From: a virus
Taxonomy: Duplodnaviria > Heunggongvirae > Uroviricota > Caudoviricetes
Reading direction: 5' to 3' (one strand)
Length of the DNA: 22,959 nucleotides
IMG/VR virus record: IMGVR_UViG_2645728010_000003
How positions within the stretch are numbered: the first letter of the stretch is position 1; every line of letters starts with the position of its first letter. This document shows positions 3,165-17,569 of this stretch, one piece after another. The position numbers and the translations under genes are program-made. The notes beneath the pieces were generated by a model. That model saw only the letters and a list, made by a program, of their open reading frames with translations, did no database searches and was not told the DNA's origin.

Positions 3165-3565
3165 TCATTCCATTTCGAAATCATCAATCTTCACTTCAAG
3201 CTCCAGACTGGTCGTAAAACCGTTATCCGGGCTGACAGTATGCGTCAGGGTGGTAATAGTCCATTCCGCATCATCTATCGGCTGTTTAAAGCCACTGACT
3301 TTCACTGGCATTTCCGTGTAGAGATCTGCCCGCCCTTCCGCCAGTTGTAGCGAGAATGACGCAACGCCGCGTTGCAGGCGTTCCCACTGCATTTTCGCCG
3401 CTCGTTCGGCGTTGCTCCGGTTGGCATAAGTGCGATTAAGTACCAGCACGTTTTCATCCGTACCCACCAGGTAATCGCCCTGCTTCGCTTCCGGCTCTTT
3501 CTTCTGCTTCTTAGTTCTGCGCTTACGCTTCACCGTGGTGCTTTCTTTCTTCGCAGGTTCGCGGG
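3165..3565 (-). pseudogene. D: C-terminal remnant of P2 gpD-like tail protein
   Basis: C-terminal residues (NAERAAKMQWERLQRGVASFS ... LELEVKIDDFEME) resemble the gpD C-terminus; only about 130 codons remain, with no native start. Confidence 0.7.
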
Positions 3566-3811
3566 TAACTCTTCTATCAGCGTAACAAGATGCCGCATAC
3601 TGCGCCCCAACCTGTCCAGCTTCCAGACAACCAGCGTGTCTCCTGCCGATAGTGTCCTGAGCAGTTTTTTCAGCCCCGGTCTGTCGGACTTAGTGCCGCT
3701 GATTTTATCCTCAAAAATCCGCTCACATCCCGCGCAGTTCAGCGCACTACGTTGCAAATCGGTGTTCTGGTCATTTGTTGACACGCGTACATAGCCAATA
3801 AGCATGATCAT
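3530..3811 (-). pseudogene. pin: Pin/Gin/Hin-family serine invertase, N-terminal fragment only
   Basis: MLIGYVRVSTNDQNTDLQ catalytic-Ser motif and resolvase core up to about residue 82, then unrelated residues and a stop; the C-terminal HTH domain is missing. Confidence 0.75.
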
Positions 3812-8513: not shown

Positions 8514-8859
8514 TCTCTGCTCCTGTTGATACGGAAAGGGAAACAGGCACACCGTTATTACGCCGCCCGGTCAGTCCCACCACCATTGAACCGTCAAAAT
8601 TGCTGTTAATGGTGATGGAATCCAGCGTCAGCCGTGGCTCCCAGCGACTCAGCGCCACATACACTGCCGACATGACCTGCAGGCGTAACGCCGGATTTTG
8701 TGGCTGGTCTATCAGTGCCGACAGCAGGGAACCATATTCACGGCGAGCAATGCGGCTACCCTGCGGCGTCAGCAGAATGTCCCGCACCGACTGGCGCAGA
8801 TGGTCAATATCAGTAATGACTTTGCCGCTGGTATTGTTCATCCCGCTATAAAGCGTCAT
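8500..8859 (-). CDS. W: Baseplate wedge protein (gpW-like, gp25 family)
   Basis: 119 aa, position between V and J, gpW-like sequence. Confidence 0.82.
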   Translation of the reverse strand: MTLYSGMNNTSGKVITDIDHLRQSVRDILLTPQGSRIARREYGSLLSALIDQPQNPALRLQVMSAVYVALSRWEPRLTLDSITINSNFDGSMVVGLTGRRNNGVPVSLSVSTGAENGSD

Positions 8860-9434
8860 ACCGGGCCTCCGGTTGTATCGCCGCCTTTCAGGACGCCAGT
8901 ATGCTGATGCGCATCAACCACGATCCCGTTAGAACTCATCGCTCCGCCGCCCTGGGTAACGCCACCATTGATCACCACTTCGCTGTTAATGCGCGTGCGG
9001 TCAGCCTCCAGTACAAACTCACTGGTTTTCATGGTGATGTTATCAGCGGCCTCAATGACCATTGATTTGATGCCCCTGACATACCAGCGCCCGGTGGCGG
9101 GTTCGTATTCAAACCAGCCACCGTCAGGATGTTCTGTCACGCAGGCGTCCGCCGACGTCGACGGTGGTGCGAACTGATTCGAATAGACAGCGGGCAGCGC
9201 AAAGGCAGTCTCCAGATTGCCGCCCAGACTCAGCAGCACCACCTGCTCACCTTCCGATGGTCGCCACCATGTGCGGGCATTACCCGCGCGCAGCGTCAGC
9301 CAGCTGATCCAGTTGGTTTCAAGGTCGCCCGTTTTCACCCGACAAAGCCAGTTTTCCCGGTCCACTTCGGTGACTACACCTATGCGGATCAGATTGGTGA
9401 TAAGGCGCATGATTTCGGTTAGTTGTGCGTTCAT
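8856..9434 (-). CDS. V: Baseplate spike/hub protein (gpV-like)
   Basis: Starts at internal Met (MNAQLTEIMRL...) at 9432-9434; the longer track ORF extends into the divergent moron. Confidence 0.85.
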   Translation of the reverse strand: MNAQLTEIMRLITNLIRIGVVTEVDRENWLCRVKTGDLETNWISWLTLRAGNARTWWRPSEGEQVVLLSLGGNLETAFALPAVYSNQFAPPSTSADACVTEHPDGGWFEYEPATGRWYVRGIKSMVIEAADNITMKTSEFVLEADRTRINSEVVINGGVTQGGGAMSSNGIVVDAHQHTGVLKGGDTTGGPV

Positions 9435-9537
9435 AGATATATGATGACAGCTGAAAACTTGTTTATAACTTCTTGCAAATTGTGGTATCGATGGTACAAA
9501 TTGATAAAAGGATAAAAAACAACCAATAGGTGGATAA

Positions 9538-10344
9538 ATGAGTGTTATGAATCCAATAAGTTCTAATATATTTAATGCTGAATTTTTAAACACCCCGGCA
9601 GCGGCACTTGCCGCATGGATTTCCATTATTGGAGCTGTTATAACTTTGGTGACGATAGTTATAAGAGCACTATTCAAATATAGAAAATCTCATGATGTAA
9701 TTTTGAAAAAATCAGGAATACCTGCGTTTATATTAAATTTTTTTCTTATACGAATATCATTAAAAAGGCTGCCTACTATCACATGGGCTGAAAAATCAAT
9801 CACGGTTCTCTTTTCACTTCTTTTTTTGTGTGCAATTTATATTTTTGGTCCAGTTTTCATCCAAGCCATTAGAACCCCACCAAATAGCACATTGCTTTAT
9901 TGGATAAAGTCCGGTGAATCATTTTATATGTCAAAAAAACTGGCGACTGCAGCTACAATATTAACCACTCCTGATTGGGAAATATCAAAAGATGATTGCG
10001 AAGAGTCATCCTCTGCCAGTACAGAGAAGTACAAATCATTAACTATCGAACATAAAGAAATTCTTTGTAAACTACTAACCACTGATGAAGGGAATACTTA
10101 CATTGATGAAGAAGTCAAGAATTTCGTTAAAGACAAATTCTTTATCTATTCCTTTGCCCCAACAACCATATTTATTCTATTATGGATTTCTTTGGGTTTT
10201 ATACTGACCATTCACTATTCTAAAAAAGTTAGGAAATATATTCTGACTGAACAAAAAAATGCAATTCATTGGGCATATGGTGAATTCAAGACAGAAGGAA
10301 TCTATTCAATATATCACGAGTTAGAACGTAAGACTCACCATTAA
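9538..10344 (+). CDS. AT-rich moron: polytopic membrane protein of unknown function
   Basis: 268 aa, about 4 predicted TM helices plus a charged soluble domain; AGGTGGA Shine-Dalgarno 5 nt upstream; low GC against a GC-rich late operon; opposite strand to flanking V and S. Confidence 0.7.
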   Translation: MSVMNPISSNIFNAEFLNTPAAALAAWISIIGAVITLVTIVIRALFKYRKSHDVILKKSGIPAFILNFFLIRISLKRLPTITWAEKSITVLFSLLFLCAIYIFGPVFIQAIRTPPNSTLLYWIKSGESFYMSKKLATAATILTTPDWEISKDDCEESSSASTEKYKSLTIEHKEILCKLLTTDEGNTYIDEEVKNFVKDKFFIYSFAPTTIFILLWISLGFILTIHYSKKVRKYILTEQKNAIHWAYGEFKTEGIYSIYHELERKTHH

Positions 10345-10732
10345 GACCCAACAAACGACGCTCTGCGTAACGCACTTCCGGTCCTTTGCGGCTGACGCGA
10401 TCGCGCAGGCCATAATGGTGAACGCGGGCAATGCGCTGCACCTTACTTTCAAACTGTACGCTGGCAGAGTCGGCGCTGGCGGCGGTTTTCAGGTATTTGG
10501 TGGTGCGCAGCTTTGCAAACATCTGACGTTTGATGCGGCCTTTTTTACTGCGCGCCGTGACCTTGCGCGGTTCATAACTGCTGCCATCTGGATTGCGCTG
10601 CATCCTGATATTCTGCTGCTGTGTCCGGCGCAGTTCCTGCGCCAGCTGGCGCATCATGCGGCTTCTTGCGACTGGTTCCAGATTCGCCAGTAAGGCACTA
10701 AGCCAGTCGTCCACCTTCTGCAGTTCAGCCAC
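10286..10732 (-). CDS. S: Tail completion protein (gpS-like), C-terminus altered by the adjacent insertion
   Basis: P2 S-like N-terminus (MAELQKVDDWLSALLANLEP ... QQQNIRMQRNPDGS); 3' end overlaps the moron 3' end. Confidence 0.8.
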   Translation of the reverse strand: MAELQKVDDWLSALLANLEPVARSRMMRQLAQELRRTQQQNIRMQRNPDGSSYEPRKVTARSKKGRIKRQMFAKLRTTKYLKTAASADSASVQFESKVQRIARVHHYGLRDRVSRKGPEVRYAERRLLGLNGESYVLTRDILNRFLLS

Positions 10733-11409: not shown

Positions 11410-11680
11410 GTTTCAGTTCCTCGATCCGGTGTTGTCGTTGTCTCAGCAGTGCACTGGTCTGTTCTGCTTCGGCATAGAGCCGCGCCTGCTCCCGGTTATT
11501 GGTTTCAGTCAGAATGGACAGGCTGATAAGCTGGCTGTTTTTCTTCGTCAGTTCCTGCGCTTTACTTTTCAGCGCCGCGCGCTGCGTTTCGATGGTGTGG
11601 CTGGCGCTGTTAAGCCGCCACGACTGCCAGCCCAGCGCAACGAGTGCCAGCGCCACCACTACTGCCAGCGCACGCGTCAT
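11252..11680 (-). CDS. lysB: i-spanin (LysB/Rz-like)
   Basis: N-terminal TM helix then coiled-coil periplasmic region; 142 aa. Confidence 0.7.
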   Translation of the reverse strand: MTRALAVVVALALVALGWQSWRLNSASHTIETQRAALKSKAQELTKKNSQLISLSILTETNNREQARLYAEAEQTSALLRQRQHRIEELKRENEDLRRWADTPLPADIIRLRERPALTGGTAYRQWLSASDAVSAGSGNAAH

Positions 11681-11816
11681 AGTCCAGCTCCTTTAAGGCA
11701 CCAGGCCATCTCCCGCGCACGGCGGTTATCCAGCCCCTGATTAAACACACCTTTTACATAAACCCAGCGCGGCAACTGTCGGCACGCATCTGCCCAGCGC
11801 CGCTGATTGAGCAATT

Positions 11817-12569
11817 TCACCAGTGTGGAACTACAGGCATTGCCCGTTGCTGCTTCTGCAGAGCAGACTCCAGTTCAGACAGGCGTTCTTCCTGCTCAGA
11901 CAGAGATTTTTCGGTTCGCGCGCTCAGGTTTTGCTGCTCAGTGGCGACCAGCTCCACGGCCTTATGCACATCAGAGAACCGGGCGTCATCGGACTGCTCT
12001 TTTTTGGTGAACAGCGCCGTGACGCGGGAAAACAGGGACGGTTTGTCGTCCTGGACTTCCTCCAGTTCGATCACCGTTTCCTCTGCAGCGGTAAAGAGAT
12101 TGGCAGGATTCTGCTTGCGGTTTGCCAGCGGGTTATGGGCTGCACTGGCGCTGAATGTCAGCATTTCAGTGCCCAGACTGGCAGGGTCATCAGTGGCAGC
12201 CAGGCCGACCAGGTAGGCTTTGCCCGTATCAGCGAACTTCGGGCTGACTTCCATAGAGGTGAATAATTTCTGGCCTTTTTTCACCAGTTCCACCAGGGAC
12301 TCCGTTGGCTCAACGTCGGCATACAGCGCCATCTTGCCTGCCAGCGGACCTTCCGTGATTTCCTCAGCAAACAGCGCCGTCACCTTGCCGTAGCGGTTAA
12401 AGGTGCTGTCCGGCAGATAAGACTTGATGTGCTCAAGGTTAATCAGCGCGGTATACACCGCCGGGTTGTAGCTGGCTGCCATCTGTTCCAGCCATTCACG
12501 CTGGATTTCGCGTCCGTCGGTGGTGGCACCTTCCACCCCGATGCGAAAACGCTTTGCTTTCACTGTCAT
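11817..12569 (-). CDS. O: Capsid scaffold protein (gpO-like), C-terminally truncated
   Basis: RFRIGVEG ... INLEH ... YLVGLAATDDPASLGTE motifs of gpO; about 30 aa shorter than P2 O, and 137 bp from lysB with N, M, L, X, Y, K and lysA absent. Confidence 0.85.
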   Translation of the reverse strand: MTVKAKRFRIGVEGATTDGREIQREWLEQMAASYNPAVYTALINLEHIKSYLPDSTFNRYGKVTALFAEEITEGPLAGKMALYADVEPTESLVELVKKGQKLFTSMEVSPKFADTGKAYLVGLAATDDPASLGTEMLTFSASAAHNPLANRKQNPANLFTAAEETVIELEEVQDDKPSLFSRVTALFTKKEQSDDARFSDVHKAVELVATEQQNLSARTEKSLSEQEERLSELESALQKQQRAMPVVPHW

Positions 12570-15511: not shown

Positions 15512-15531
15512 CGAAGACCATTAGGTCTTCG
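15512..15531. terminator. Bidirectional hairpin shared by convergent Q and retron RT
   Basis: cgaagacc-atta-ggtcttcg with T-rich flanks on both strands; the RT stop codon lies in the loop. Confidence 0.6.
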
Positions 15532-16483
15532 CTTTATTTAAAGGGTTCTTTCCATATTTTTTTTCTAATTTGCTAATATAAGTTATTAATCTCCTATGGC
15601 TTTTTGAATCCACACTTAAAATAAATGACAACCATCCCCTAACGTGTTCTATCTCAGAAGACTTACCGCAAAATATATGATGTATCTTTGCTCTAATTTC
15701 TTTATATTTTTCTCTACCTATCCCAACTTTCTCTTGTGAAATAACTAAACCTGTAACTTTCCTCTGACTACGAGGCCCACTAATACAAGTTTTTTTTGAG
15801 TTAATAACCAATCCTTCACTTGGGATTATAGAAAATAAAAAATCACGTGCTTTAACAACCTTTTTCATAGACTGTGCAGATAAGGTGAGATCATCGGCAT
15901 ATCTCGTATATATCAAGCCCCGACTACCTGCATAACCCTGAATACGATAATCAAGTTTAGAACATATTAGATTAGCTAATTTAGGTGATGATGGAGCACC
16001 TTGTGGTAGCAGATTTTTATAACAACATATTTTTGTCAAAACTGAAGATATTAGTCGATTATAACCAAGAGAATGGAACACTCCAAAAACTTTGTTAGCA
16101 GTTAAACTTGGGAAAAAATCCTCCAAATCAATATTCAGTATAAAGTTTGCCCCAATATGCGGGGTAGCATTATTCAAAATAGATTGGTGCTTTTCAAATC
16201 CAATAGAAAAAGGAGATGACGACAGTTTATCTAAAATGTTACGTAGAACCCATCCTTGTAAGGCTTTAAGTTCTCGAGAAGGTTGGTAAATGGTTCTCAT
16301 TCTCTTCTCTGGGCCTTTCTTTTCTACAGTGTAGATCCTATAGCGAAAATCAGCTGTATAGATTAACAACCGAAGTGTTTCAACAGATATGCGAGTCGCC
16401 TTAGACATGTCATGCAAATTGTTCATGACAGGTAGGCCGAGATTTCTCAATCTAAAAGTGTTCAAATATTCAGCGGATTTCAT
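15521..16483 (-). CDS. ret: Retron reverse transcriptase (Ec86/Eco1-type)
   Basis: 320 aa; RT motifs including LPQGAPSSP and YTRYADDLTLS (YADD box); directly downstream of the msr-msd locus; matches my memory of the Ec86 RT. Confidence 0.95.
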   Translation of the reverse strand: MKSAEYLNTFRLRNLGLPVMNNLHDMSKATRISVETLRLLIYTADFRYRIYTVEKKGPEKRMRTIYQPSRELKALQGWVLRNILDKLSSSPFSIGFEKHQSILNNATPHIGANFILNIDLEDFFPSLTANKVFGVFHSLGYNRLISSVLTKICCYKNLLPQGAPSSPKLANLICSKLDYRIQGYAGSRGLIYTRYADDLTLSAQSMKKVVKARDFLFSIIPSEGLVINSKKTCISGPRSQRKVTGLVISQEKVGIGREKYKEIRAKIHHIFCGKSSEIEHVRGWLSFILSVDSKSHRRLITYISKLEKKYGKNPLNKAKT

Positions 16484-16489
16484 GAAAGT

Positions 16490-16658
16490 TGCGCACCCTT
16501 ACGTCAGAAAAAACGGGTTTCCTGGTTGGCTCGGAGAGCATCAGGCGATGCTCTCCGTTCCAACAAGGAAAACAGACAGTAACTCAGATTCAATGCAGGA
16601 TGCCGAAACAACATCCAGAGGTTGACCTTAATGATAAACCTCTCGCTAAGGGTGCGCA
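16490..16658 (-). ncRNA. msr-msd: Retron msr-msd non-coding RNA (msDNA template)
   Basis: Flanked by 12-bp inverted repeats a2 (16490-16501, TGCGCACCCTTA) and a1 (16647-16658); internal perfect 10-bp hairpin at 16533-16556; minus-strand sequence matches what I recall of Ec86 msr/msd. Confidence 0.9.
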
Positions 16659-17569
16659 TACGGAATCTTATCATAGTTAAATGTTGATTTTCTACGGTTT
16701 TCAAAATTCATAATCTCAAGCCGCAATCGGTCAAGTGTCTTTCTATCAAAGACGCTCCTAACATAGCTAGCCCCCAAAGCAGTGACCTGATAACCATCAG
16801 TCATTTGAAGTATTTTTCGTTCATTTATTAGACGAGAAACAACGGATCTAACAATAATTTTAGATAAAACATCATCTTGCTTTATCGCTTTAAAAGCTAG
16901 TTCACACAGTGTGCGGTAGTTGACACTATCCAGTAAATAGATACAAGGCAATAGAAACCGCTCTGCGTATAATATATTTCCAATATCTTTTGATACTTTA
17001 TTTTCTTTCCTAACCTTCTTAATAGATGCCATTAATTTTTTATATAATCGTAATTTTCTGGCAACATCAATAGATGAATCACACATTTCTTTTAGTTCAT
17101 TTGAACTACAACGCAAAACAGATTTTGAATTAAACTTACGCAACAGGCGAACAGGACCATAGTTAATAAAGCTACGTTTTGATTTAAATTTTGCATCTTG
17201 AATGCAAATCAACTTTCTCCTTAAGTTTTCATTATTAGAGAACGCACCAAGCTCTGTGAAAGACCCCGGACTTTCAGGAAATAAAATTATTACATCGACA
17301 GCTTCAGCCAGAATATTTTCTAAACTTAAAAGGCTATGCTGCCCTTGACCAGCCAAAAGATCATCAAATAGATCTTCTGGATAAAATATATCAACATCAC
17401 TGAACTTTGCTAAAAATTGTGATAATTGATGACGCCAAGATTGATGATTAGCAACGTCACCACCACATAGAAAAATGGTTATTTTAATATTAGCTCCTCG
17501 ATAGAAGCCTTTCTTTGTGAGATGTCCTATAAGCTGTTGTTGCTGCTCATCGGTAAATTTTTTATTCAT
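16646..17569 (-). CDS. Retron effector, nucleoside 2-deoxyribosyltransferase-like N-terminal domain plus C-terminal domain
   Basis: 307 aa directly upstream of msr; Rossmann-like IFLCGG ... ILFPESPGSFTELG pattern; stop codon overlaps a1; GGGGAG RBS. Confidence 0.8.
   Translation of the reverse strand: MNKKFTDEQQQQLIGHLTKKGFYRGANIKITIFLCGGDVANHQSWRHQLSQFLAKFSDVDIFYPEDLFDDLLAGQGQHSLLSLENILAEAVDVIILFPESPGSFTELGAFSNNENLRRKLICIQDAKFKSKRSFINYGPVRLLRKFNSKSVLRCSSNELKEMCDSSIDVARKLRLYKKLMASIKKVRKENKVSKDIGNILYAERFLLPCIYLLDSVNYRTLCELAFKAIKQDDVLSKIIVRSVVSRLINERKILQMTDGYQVTALGASYVRSVFDRKTLDRLRLEIMNFENRRKSTFNYDKIPYAHP

Follow-up and report, generated by a model that had tools for sequence, protein, structure and literature searches.

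The stretch of DNA analysed here, called the window throughout, comprises the 22,959 nucleotides of the IMG/VR virus record IMGVR_UViG_2645728010_000003. It is the defective P2-like prophage of Escherichia coli B (BL21/REL606), and between its late genes V and S it carries a horizontally acquired, AT-rich, antiparallel insertion that consists of a single gene. This gene encodes a protein of the Pfam family DUF6216, it is under purifying selection, and in several Enterobacterales species it is the last intact gene of the prophage. We propose that it is probably kept for the benefit of the host, independently of phage propagation. With a probability that we put at roughly 40%, its product acts as a single-protein exclusion or immunity factor of the cell envelope, for which a block at the DNA-entry step is the favoured mode of action.

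The argument for a benefit to the host comes from the fate of the gene in decayed prophages. Next to ybjL, an intact DUF6216 gene was found in Citrobacter youngae, C. sedlakii, a Scandinavium species, an Enterobacteriaceae metagenome-assembled genome and the genome of locus L012, in all of which V, S and R are fragmentary or undetectable. Prophage remnants at another site, adjoining mug, likewise retain an intact copy in Klebsiella aerogenes and Serratia rubidaea, and a relative of 20% identity occupies a similar mug-linked position beside a Fic gene. The ratio of nonsynonymous to synonymous divergence (dN/dS) against the orthologues lies between 0.15 and 0.34, except for the closest one (L026), where a value of 0.69 is obtained on a dS of only 0.04. 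Because purifying selection persists after the death of the prophage, the gene would benefit the bacterium; because it is retained without any partner, it would work alone; and because the slot between S and V is empty in many viable phages of the P2 genus, it appears to be dispensable for phage growth. The ybjL remnant of Scandinavium sp. (L005 6836-11849, identical with locus L039) has lost its structural genes and keeps the genes for a GIY-YIG protein, the DUF6216 protein, a CI-type repressor and a 662-residue AAA_15/AAA_21 ATPase; it looks like a small defence island.

In E. coli, the cassette is present in 111 of 5426 complete genomes, intact and always as a single copy. Sixty-one of these copies match the window at 99% identity or more, and those listed among them come mostly from laboratory strains of the B lineage; the remaining copies stem mainly from clinical, animal and environmental isolates. 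The close subfamily (at least 47% identity) is limited to Enterobacterales. In every one of its loci the gene lies about 100 bp from the start of V, and it overlaps the 3' end of S wherever S survives. IMG/VR prophage contigs of 31-38 kb also carry the gene.

Divergence is not even along the protein. When the 50%-identical alleles of L002 and L030 were compared by region, the proportion of nonsynonymous differences (pN) reached 0.44-0.50 in the core formed by the second transmembrane (TM) segment, the central domain and the third TM segment, and 0.04-0.14 in the N- and C-terminal tails. Such a fast-diverging core fits a diversifying surface, and an exchange of alleles would yield the same pattern.

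The foreign origin of the cassette is visible in its composition and in its boundaries (Table 1). Its G+C content (GC) is 32.7%, as against 57.2% in V and 57.6% in the non-overlapping part of S. Along the region the profile runs at 0.31-0.37 compared with 0.56-0.59 in the flanks, and at third codon positions (GC3) the values are 0.27 for the open reading frame (ORF) versus 0.64 for V and S. The ORF starts with ATG and runs antiparallel to the late genes V and S. In the empty-site relative Escherichia phage 500465-1 the gap between V and S measures 68 bp and contains no gene, and comparison with this phage places the left boundary of the insertion at about 9436, just past the start codon of V; the right one falls within S, at about 10345. 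The cassette is moreover mobile independently of its flanks: against L026, dS is 0.04 in the cassette and 0.6-0.9 in V and S. A preliminary description of this locus, made from the sequence alone, had reported a 268-residue ORF with a GC content far below that of its neighbours, preceded by a strong ribosome-binding site and inserted antiparallel between V and S, and all of this holds. Judged by the lambdoid definition of a moron as an extra gene that carries its own signals and lies between conserved genes, the gene is both absent from close relatives and deviant in GC content. A 273-residue ORF (8856-9677, minus strand) was rejected as a gene, since it only prolongs V upstream, from a TTG start, across the promoter region and the 5' end of the cassette.

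Since the right boundary lies inside S, the last 17 residues of this tail-completion protein are encoded by cassette DNA. They are unlike those of the empty-site S (GESYVLTRDILNRFLLS versus DDVEAMTRDMILQWLAG), with the full length of 148 residues and a similar residue pattern being kept. The preliminary description had the 3' end of S overwritten; it is indeed replaced, but it is not truncated. The overlap of 59 bp in which both strands code has a GC content of 34%, and it recurs in the orthologous loci as well as in a relative with only 21% identity. Between the S genes of the window and L002 we obtained a pN of 0.62, which is implausibly high beside a tblastn identity of 70% and from which no claim is drawn.

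The insertion is not a one-off event. It occupies a site long known to vary among P2-like phages, the orf30 locus, and its product is probably distantly related to Orf30 itself. In P2, orf30 is marked as nonessential in the database record; like the DUF6216 gene, it lies antiparallel between the operons, next to the site from which the late promoter P_V is activated. The locus is one of three regions of horizontal acquisition in P2-like phages (PMC3091744), and phage R18C carries a different gene there (PMC6823313). The association of DUF6216 genes with the slot appears to be old, since the relative P0059, at 21% identity, lies in the same slot with the same overlap of S in a complete P2-like prophage.

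P2 Orf30 (NP_046770, phrog_2407) and the DUF6216 protein share more than a position. Both are encoded by a single AT-rich gene that is antiparallel to its surroundings and is flanked by S, with which the O operon ends, and by the P_V activator site; their lengths are 261 and 268 residues, and both follow the same layout of TM segment, basic loop, TM segment, two-cysteine domain, TM segment and basic tail. Orf30 differs in its longer cytoplasmic loop of about 80 residues, and orf30 differs in that it does not overlap S, from which it is separated by a terminator, and in that its start is only 15 bp from the activator site. BLAST and HMMER detected no similarity between Orf30 and the DUF6216 protein, and there was no PHROG match either. 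Profile comparison with hhalign, by contrast, aligned the DUF6216 family (35 sequences) with the Orf30 family (31 sequences) at a probability of 76.8% and an E-value of 2.1e-5 over 165 collinear columns, which run from TM2 through the domain, with cysteine aligned to cysteine, to TM3 and the tail. This probability grew with the depth of the Orf30 profile, from 12.5% (one sequence) through 44.7% (five) to 76.8% (31), and the unrelated slot cargo of R18C, used as a control, gave an E-value of 0.42. Sub-threshold matches to Pfam DUF6216 were obtained in 7 of the 31 Orf30-family members (best E-value 0.00096), more than matched any other Pfam family. A superfamily relationship between DUF6216 and Orf30 is therefore likely, though not proven. 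The Orf30 family also occurs outside prophages: in Enterobacter, the gene of its member P0091 is widespread (341 index blocks) and stands alone on the chromosome, between host genes (L048/L049).

Two other occupants of the slot were considered as relatives and rejected as unrelated proteins. The cargo of phage Cartapus (L009 1175-1705) encodes 176 residues, belongs to phrog_18838 and is antiparallel like the DUF6216 gene. That of R18C (L041 581-1321) encodes a cysteine-rich protein of 246 residues with weak HNH-like matches, belongs to phrog_10503 and is co-oriented with S and V.

The family assignment of the window protein is clear, although the preliminary description had recognised no family. 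Pfam DUF6216 (PF19723) is matched at 44.5 bits against a gathering cut-off of 27.3 (E-value 1.5e-11), and the RefSeq name agrees. As in the Pfam family, there are three TM segments and an invariant pair of cysteines; unlike it, the enterobacterial subfamily adds a C-terminal extension of about 20 residues, which is encoded antisense to the 3' end of S. No match was obtained in PHROGs or in PADLOC-DB 2.0 (in PADLOC even at E-values up to 10), and NCBIfam returned chance-level matches only. A PHROG search with 35 members of the DUF6216 family likewise matched none of them.

Where about four TM segments had been expected, hydropathy supports three strong ones (residues 24-46, 88-110 and 205-227) and a weaker amphipathic stretch at 60-76. 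The orientation is predicted from the distribution of charge in an alignment of 35 full-length relatives, which reaches down to 14% identity. Loop 1 and the C-terminal tail carry a net positive charge in all 35 members, the N-terminal tail does so in only one, and the central domain is near neutral; by the positive-inside rule, the topology would thus be N-out/C-in with the central domain in the periplasm. The protein is accordingly predicted to be a three-pass inner-membrane protein with a periplasmic domain. Cys154 and Cys177, which lie 18-23 residues apart across the family, are the sole invariant residues of the alignment, and together with the near-invariant Pro114, Phe129 and Trp147 they all fall between TM2 and TM3. 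A disulfide bond would be the simplest reading of such a pair in a periplasmic domain. AlphaFold2 modelled the whole protein with a mean predicted local distance difference test (pLDDT) score of 75.6. The domain alone reached a pLDDT of 87 and a predicted template modelling (pTM) score of 0.78; in it, four short strands precede helices that continue into TM3. Neither model was found to resemble a solved structure, the structure of a PDB sequence or a predicted structure of a viral protein. In addition, TM1 shows a weak match to Phage_holin_2_3 (E-value 0.037; 14.5 bits versus a cut-off of 28.8), which is below threshold.

Upstream of the gene lies a candidate sigma-70 promoter with an extended -10 element, the hexamers of which are the most conserved of all upstream elements. 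Transcription from it would be expected to start at about 9507. The -35 hexamer, the TGn motif and the -10 hexamer are all kept in 13 of 13 orthologous loci, in which the spacer has diverged. A consensus promoter scanner did not call the TTGCAA...TACAAA element, because its -10 hexamer lacks the final T. The same region contains a TGT-N12-ACA dyad that corresponds to the Ogr/Delta activator site of P_V, with 55.5 bp between its centre and the first base of the V start codon. For P2, the database record labels a site of this kind as the P_V activator and has transcription of V begin at the first base of its coding sequence. Given the distance from dyad to ATG, the absence of a Shine-Dalgarno sequence before V (window 9434-9498) and the P2 annotation, the V-W-J-I-H messenger RNA is probably leaderless in the window as in P2.

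The dyad and a similar pair of hexamers are present in the empty-site phage 500465-1 and in phage Cartapus as well, so the motif was not brought in by the cassette. It is in the remnants that the two signals part: the promoter hexamers are kept in L006, L037, L038 and L039, where the TGT half-site is gone and V is truncated, fragmented or absent. This is the pattern that we would expect from constraint by a candidate promoter that serves the DUF6216 gene. The sigma-70 promoter proposed in the preliminary description is thus upheld by its conservation, remnants included, but it overlaps the Ogr site, has a counterpart in the empty-site phage and escapes the scanner. If it is functional, the DUF6216 gene would be transcribed in the lysogen from its own promoter. 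A scan of the locus for terminator hairpins found no intrinsic terminator on either strand, and an Rfam search gave no match. Without a terminator between the DUF6216 gene and S, the gene and the late O operon converge with no barrier, and transcription of this operon, which ends at S, might oppose expression of the DUF6216 gene during lytic growth.

Table 1. Position of the DUF6216 cassette, its signals, the predicted parts of its product and its flanking genes in the window.
Feature	Position	Strand	Basis
gpV baseplate spike gene, one flank of the cassette	8856-9434	-	annotation
AT-rich horizontally acquired cassette in the S/V (orf30) slot, 909 bp	9437-10345		composition; alignment with phages 500465-1 and Cartapus
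Candidate sigma-70 promoter, extended -10: TTGCAA (9473-9478), 16-nt spacer ending in TGG (9492-9494), TACAAA (9495-9500)	9473-9500	+	conserved hexamers
TGT-N12-ACA dyad, Ogr/Delta activator site of late promoter P_V (drives V-W-J-I-H)	9481-9498	-	motif; P2 annotation
Shine-Dalgarno sequence AGGTGGA, 3 nt upstream of ATG	9528-9534	+	motif; GGAG-type motif kept in orthologues
Coding sequence, 268 residues, DUF6216 family protein (WP_000115390.1; ECB_RS04445 in REL606)	9538-10344	+	ORF call; Pfam; RefSeq
TM1, residues 24-46; N-terminal tail (residues 1-23) predicted periplasmic	9607-9675	+	hydropathy; charge over 35 members
Predicted cytoplasmic loop, residues 47-87, K/R-rich, with conserved amphipathic G-[IV]-P-A-F-x-L-N-F-F	9676-9798	+	charge; alignments
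TM2, residues 88-110	9799-9867	+	hydropathy; AlphaFold2 helix 83-112
Predicted periplasmic domain, residues 111-204 (roughly 95 residues): four short beta-strands and helices	9868-10149	+	
Invariant Cys154 (9997-9999) and Cys177 (10066-10068); near-invariant Pro114, Phe129 and Trp147	within 9868-10149	+	
TM3, residues 205-227	10150-10218	+	hydropathy; AlphaFold2
Predicted cytoplasmic K/R-rich C-terminal tail, residues 228-268; last ~20 residues subfamily-specific	10219-10341	+	alignments; charge
Antiparallel dual-coding overlap, 59 bp: DUF6216 C-terminus (+) and last 19 codons plus stop of gpS (-)	10286-10344		ORF coordinates
gpS tail-completion gene, other flank of the cassette, 3' end supplied by the cassette	10286-10732	-	annotation; alignment

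Some distant DUF6216 and Orf30 relatives are carried by mobile elements, adjacent to conflict systems that are either predicted or known. One lies beside a GAAD/GASH/DO-GTPase/GAP1 gene set near AlpA and CbtA, in an island that also contains a weak microcin-like gene (L032 6060-12141); one beside HamA and a helicase, which together represent Hachiman, in an integrative and conjugative element (L050 7778-10780); and one beside a SIR2_2 gene near a MobA relaxase (L034 594-2159).

Our best guess, and the most economical reading, is that the DUF6216 protein is a protective factor at the level of the envelope, whose conserved and diversifying parts both face the predicted periplasm. The periplasmic domain could interfere with an incoming phage tail while it delivers DNA across the inner membrane, and the cell would then be protected without being killed. 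Proteins with this kind of action are known: T4 Imm, P22 SieA and HK97 gp15 are small inner-membrane proteins, encoded by single phage or prophage genes and expressed in the lysogen or early in infection, that act at DNA entry. The mechanism suggested for the DUF6216 protein would resemble theirs. It differs in that PHROGs, Pfam and PADLOC gave no homology to them and in that no counterpart was identified for the domain with its putative disulfide. With respect to location, the gene resembles P2 old, tin and fun(Z), which are also nonessential, horizontally acquired genes at fixed variable loci of P2-like phages; fun(Z), in addition, separates two late operons to which it runs antiparallel, and the P2 record describes it as blocking T5. 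These three differ from the DUF6216 gene in having no sequence relationship with it, in not encoding predicted three-pass membrane proteins and in having phenotypes that are known from experiment. The searches linked the protein neither to a housekeeping transporter nor to any other known protein outside defence; such homology had been named in the preliminary description as evidence that would speak against a role in defence.

Several observations weigh against this proposal. The family is rare: when 1.84 billion representative proteins were searched exhaustively with a profile, 50 relatives emerged, and none of 50,697 sequenced phage genomes was matched in tblastn searches with the protein and with two of its distant relatives. 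PADLOC, PHROGs and Pfam contain no described exclusion or defence protein with detectable homology. E. coli B is permissive to phages T1-T7, for which it is the classical host, so that the gene at its native level gives no broad protection against this set. The topology and the disulfide are predictions, and expression in the lysogen is deduced from sequence motifs. Finally, the adjacency of relatives to defence genes concerns no more than a handful of loci.

A wider claim, which we advance as speculation and consider rather doubtful in its entirety, is that DUF6216 and Orf30 form one superfamily of single-protein envelope immunity factors that was born in the S/V slot and has repeatedly been domesticated by Enterobacterales. 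Its members might block phage DNA entry or the puncture of the membrane by P2-type tails or tailocins, by means of an undescribed periplasmic domain stabilised by a disulfide.

The main rival to phage exclusion, unlikely in our estimation, is that the protein confers immunity to a membrane-targeting toxin, such as a pore-forming bacteriocin, an R-type tailocin or a contact-dependent or type VI effector, or that it remodels the envelope as a form of lysogenic conversion. A small multi-pass inner-membrane protein with periplasmic exposure does resemble the immunity proteins of bacteriocins and effectors in general. Long-term retention as a stand-alone chromosomal gene in several species, the fast divergence of the core that is predicted to face the periplasm and the microcin-like gene of island L032 would all agree with such a role. 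However, no cognate toxin gene adjoins the DUF6216 gene in any locus examined, neither Pfam nor NCBIfam shows similarity to known immunity families, and the association with a phage slot is deep, as relatives of 21% identity are still located between V and S.

Quite improbable, in turn, is an abortive-infection effector, that is, a latent SLATT-like pore-former or depolariser that infection would set off, with death or arrest of the cell as the result. Its sole specific support is the UniRef name of the cluster of the Orf30-family protein P0091, 'SMODS and SLOG-associating 2TM effector domain-containing protein', to which the proximity of relatives to NTPase, SIR2 and Hachiman conflict systems may be added. 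This SLATT identity was rejected, as neither Pfam nor NCBIfam reproduces it: their SLATT models match none of the scanned members, even at permissive E-values (the window protein and six Orf30-family members in both databases, and 31 members in Pfam). Furthermore, no sensor partner is conserved, the invariant residues are cysteines predicted to lie in the periplasm and not cytoplasmic sensing elements, and a toxin under a constitutive promoter would be hard to retain as a lone chromosomal gene across species-level divergence.

A role in the phage life cycle, be it in lysis timing as a holin-like protein or as a helper of tail or baseplate assembly, is suggested by the position of the gene among tail and lysis genes and by the weak holin match of TM1, but we consider it very improbable. 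The gene is antiparallel to the late operons and lies outside the lysis genes; it is absent from close viable phages, just as orf30 is nonessential in the P2 record; it stays intact after all structural and lysis genes have decayed; and the holin match, besides being below threshold, covers one hydrophobic helix only. Lastly, it is barely conceivable that the ORF is a decaying, non-functional remnant, for although the surrounding prophage is defective, with genes missing or turned into pseudogenes, shuffling the cassette, with its 33% GC, 5000 times never produced an open stretch of 268 codons (mean 67, maximum 177), dN/dS stays far below 1, conservation extends to the start codon, the ribosome-binding site and the promoter motifs, and intact copies are present in 111 complete E. 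coli genomes as well as in other genera.

The prophage that carries the cassette was identified with a 1.8-kb query around the ORF, which matches E. coli B strains (REL606, BL21(DE3) and derivatives) at 100% identity. In the REL606 annotation a P2-like prophage is integrated adjoining ybjL. Its genes follow the order ogr, a gpD fragment, an invertase fragment, the tail-fibre genes, I, J, W, V, the DUF6216 gene, S, R, lysC/lysB, a lysozyme fragment, O, P, Q and an St85-family retron. The prophage is defective, as N, M, L, X and Y are without annotated genes and several others are marked as pseudogenes. In the window, the gpD/VgrG-family fragment (3165-3566) and the invertase fragment (3566-3805) are annotated pseudogenes, and the scaffold gene O (11817-12569, 250 residues) abuts a C-terminal lysozyme (gpK) fragment (about 11677-11847). 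The reverse transcriptase and effector of the St85-family retron (15521-17569) lie just past the portal gene Q, at a known P2 defence hotspot; we take this retron to be the Ec86 retron of BL21.

Part of this picture is already established, namely the annotation of the gene as DUF6216 and the slot as a textbook variable locus. In the literature that we searched, the term 'DUF6216' surfaces only in an unrelated wastewater study, and neither the protein accession nor the old REL606 locus-tag prefix gives anything relevant. Recent studies of P2 defence hotspots name the gpA-gpQ interval, the region near the integrase and the Z/fun region, and one adds 'within the tail genes'; the S/V slot is not named. 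Three observations appear to be new within this literature: the probable kinship of DUF6216 with Orf30, the overlap of a conserved candidate promoter with the activator site of P_V, and the repeated survival of the gene after prophage decay.

Altogether, these observations bear on a gene of P2, orf30, that has stood as an unexplained nonessential gene for about three decades. Its probable link to a Pfam family of the DUF type and the survival of the DUF6216 gene beyond the prophage provide a concrete and cheap target, which is present in the widely used strains BL21 and REL606. Even a negative outcome would be relevant to those who use B strains as phage hosts. Should the protective role hold true, the DUF6216 protein would represent a new class of single-gene envelope defence or immunity, and a classical gene of P2 would find its explanation.

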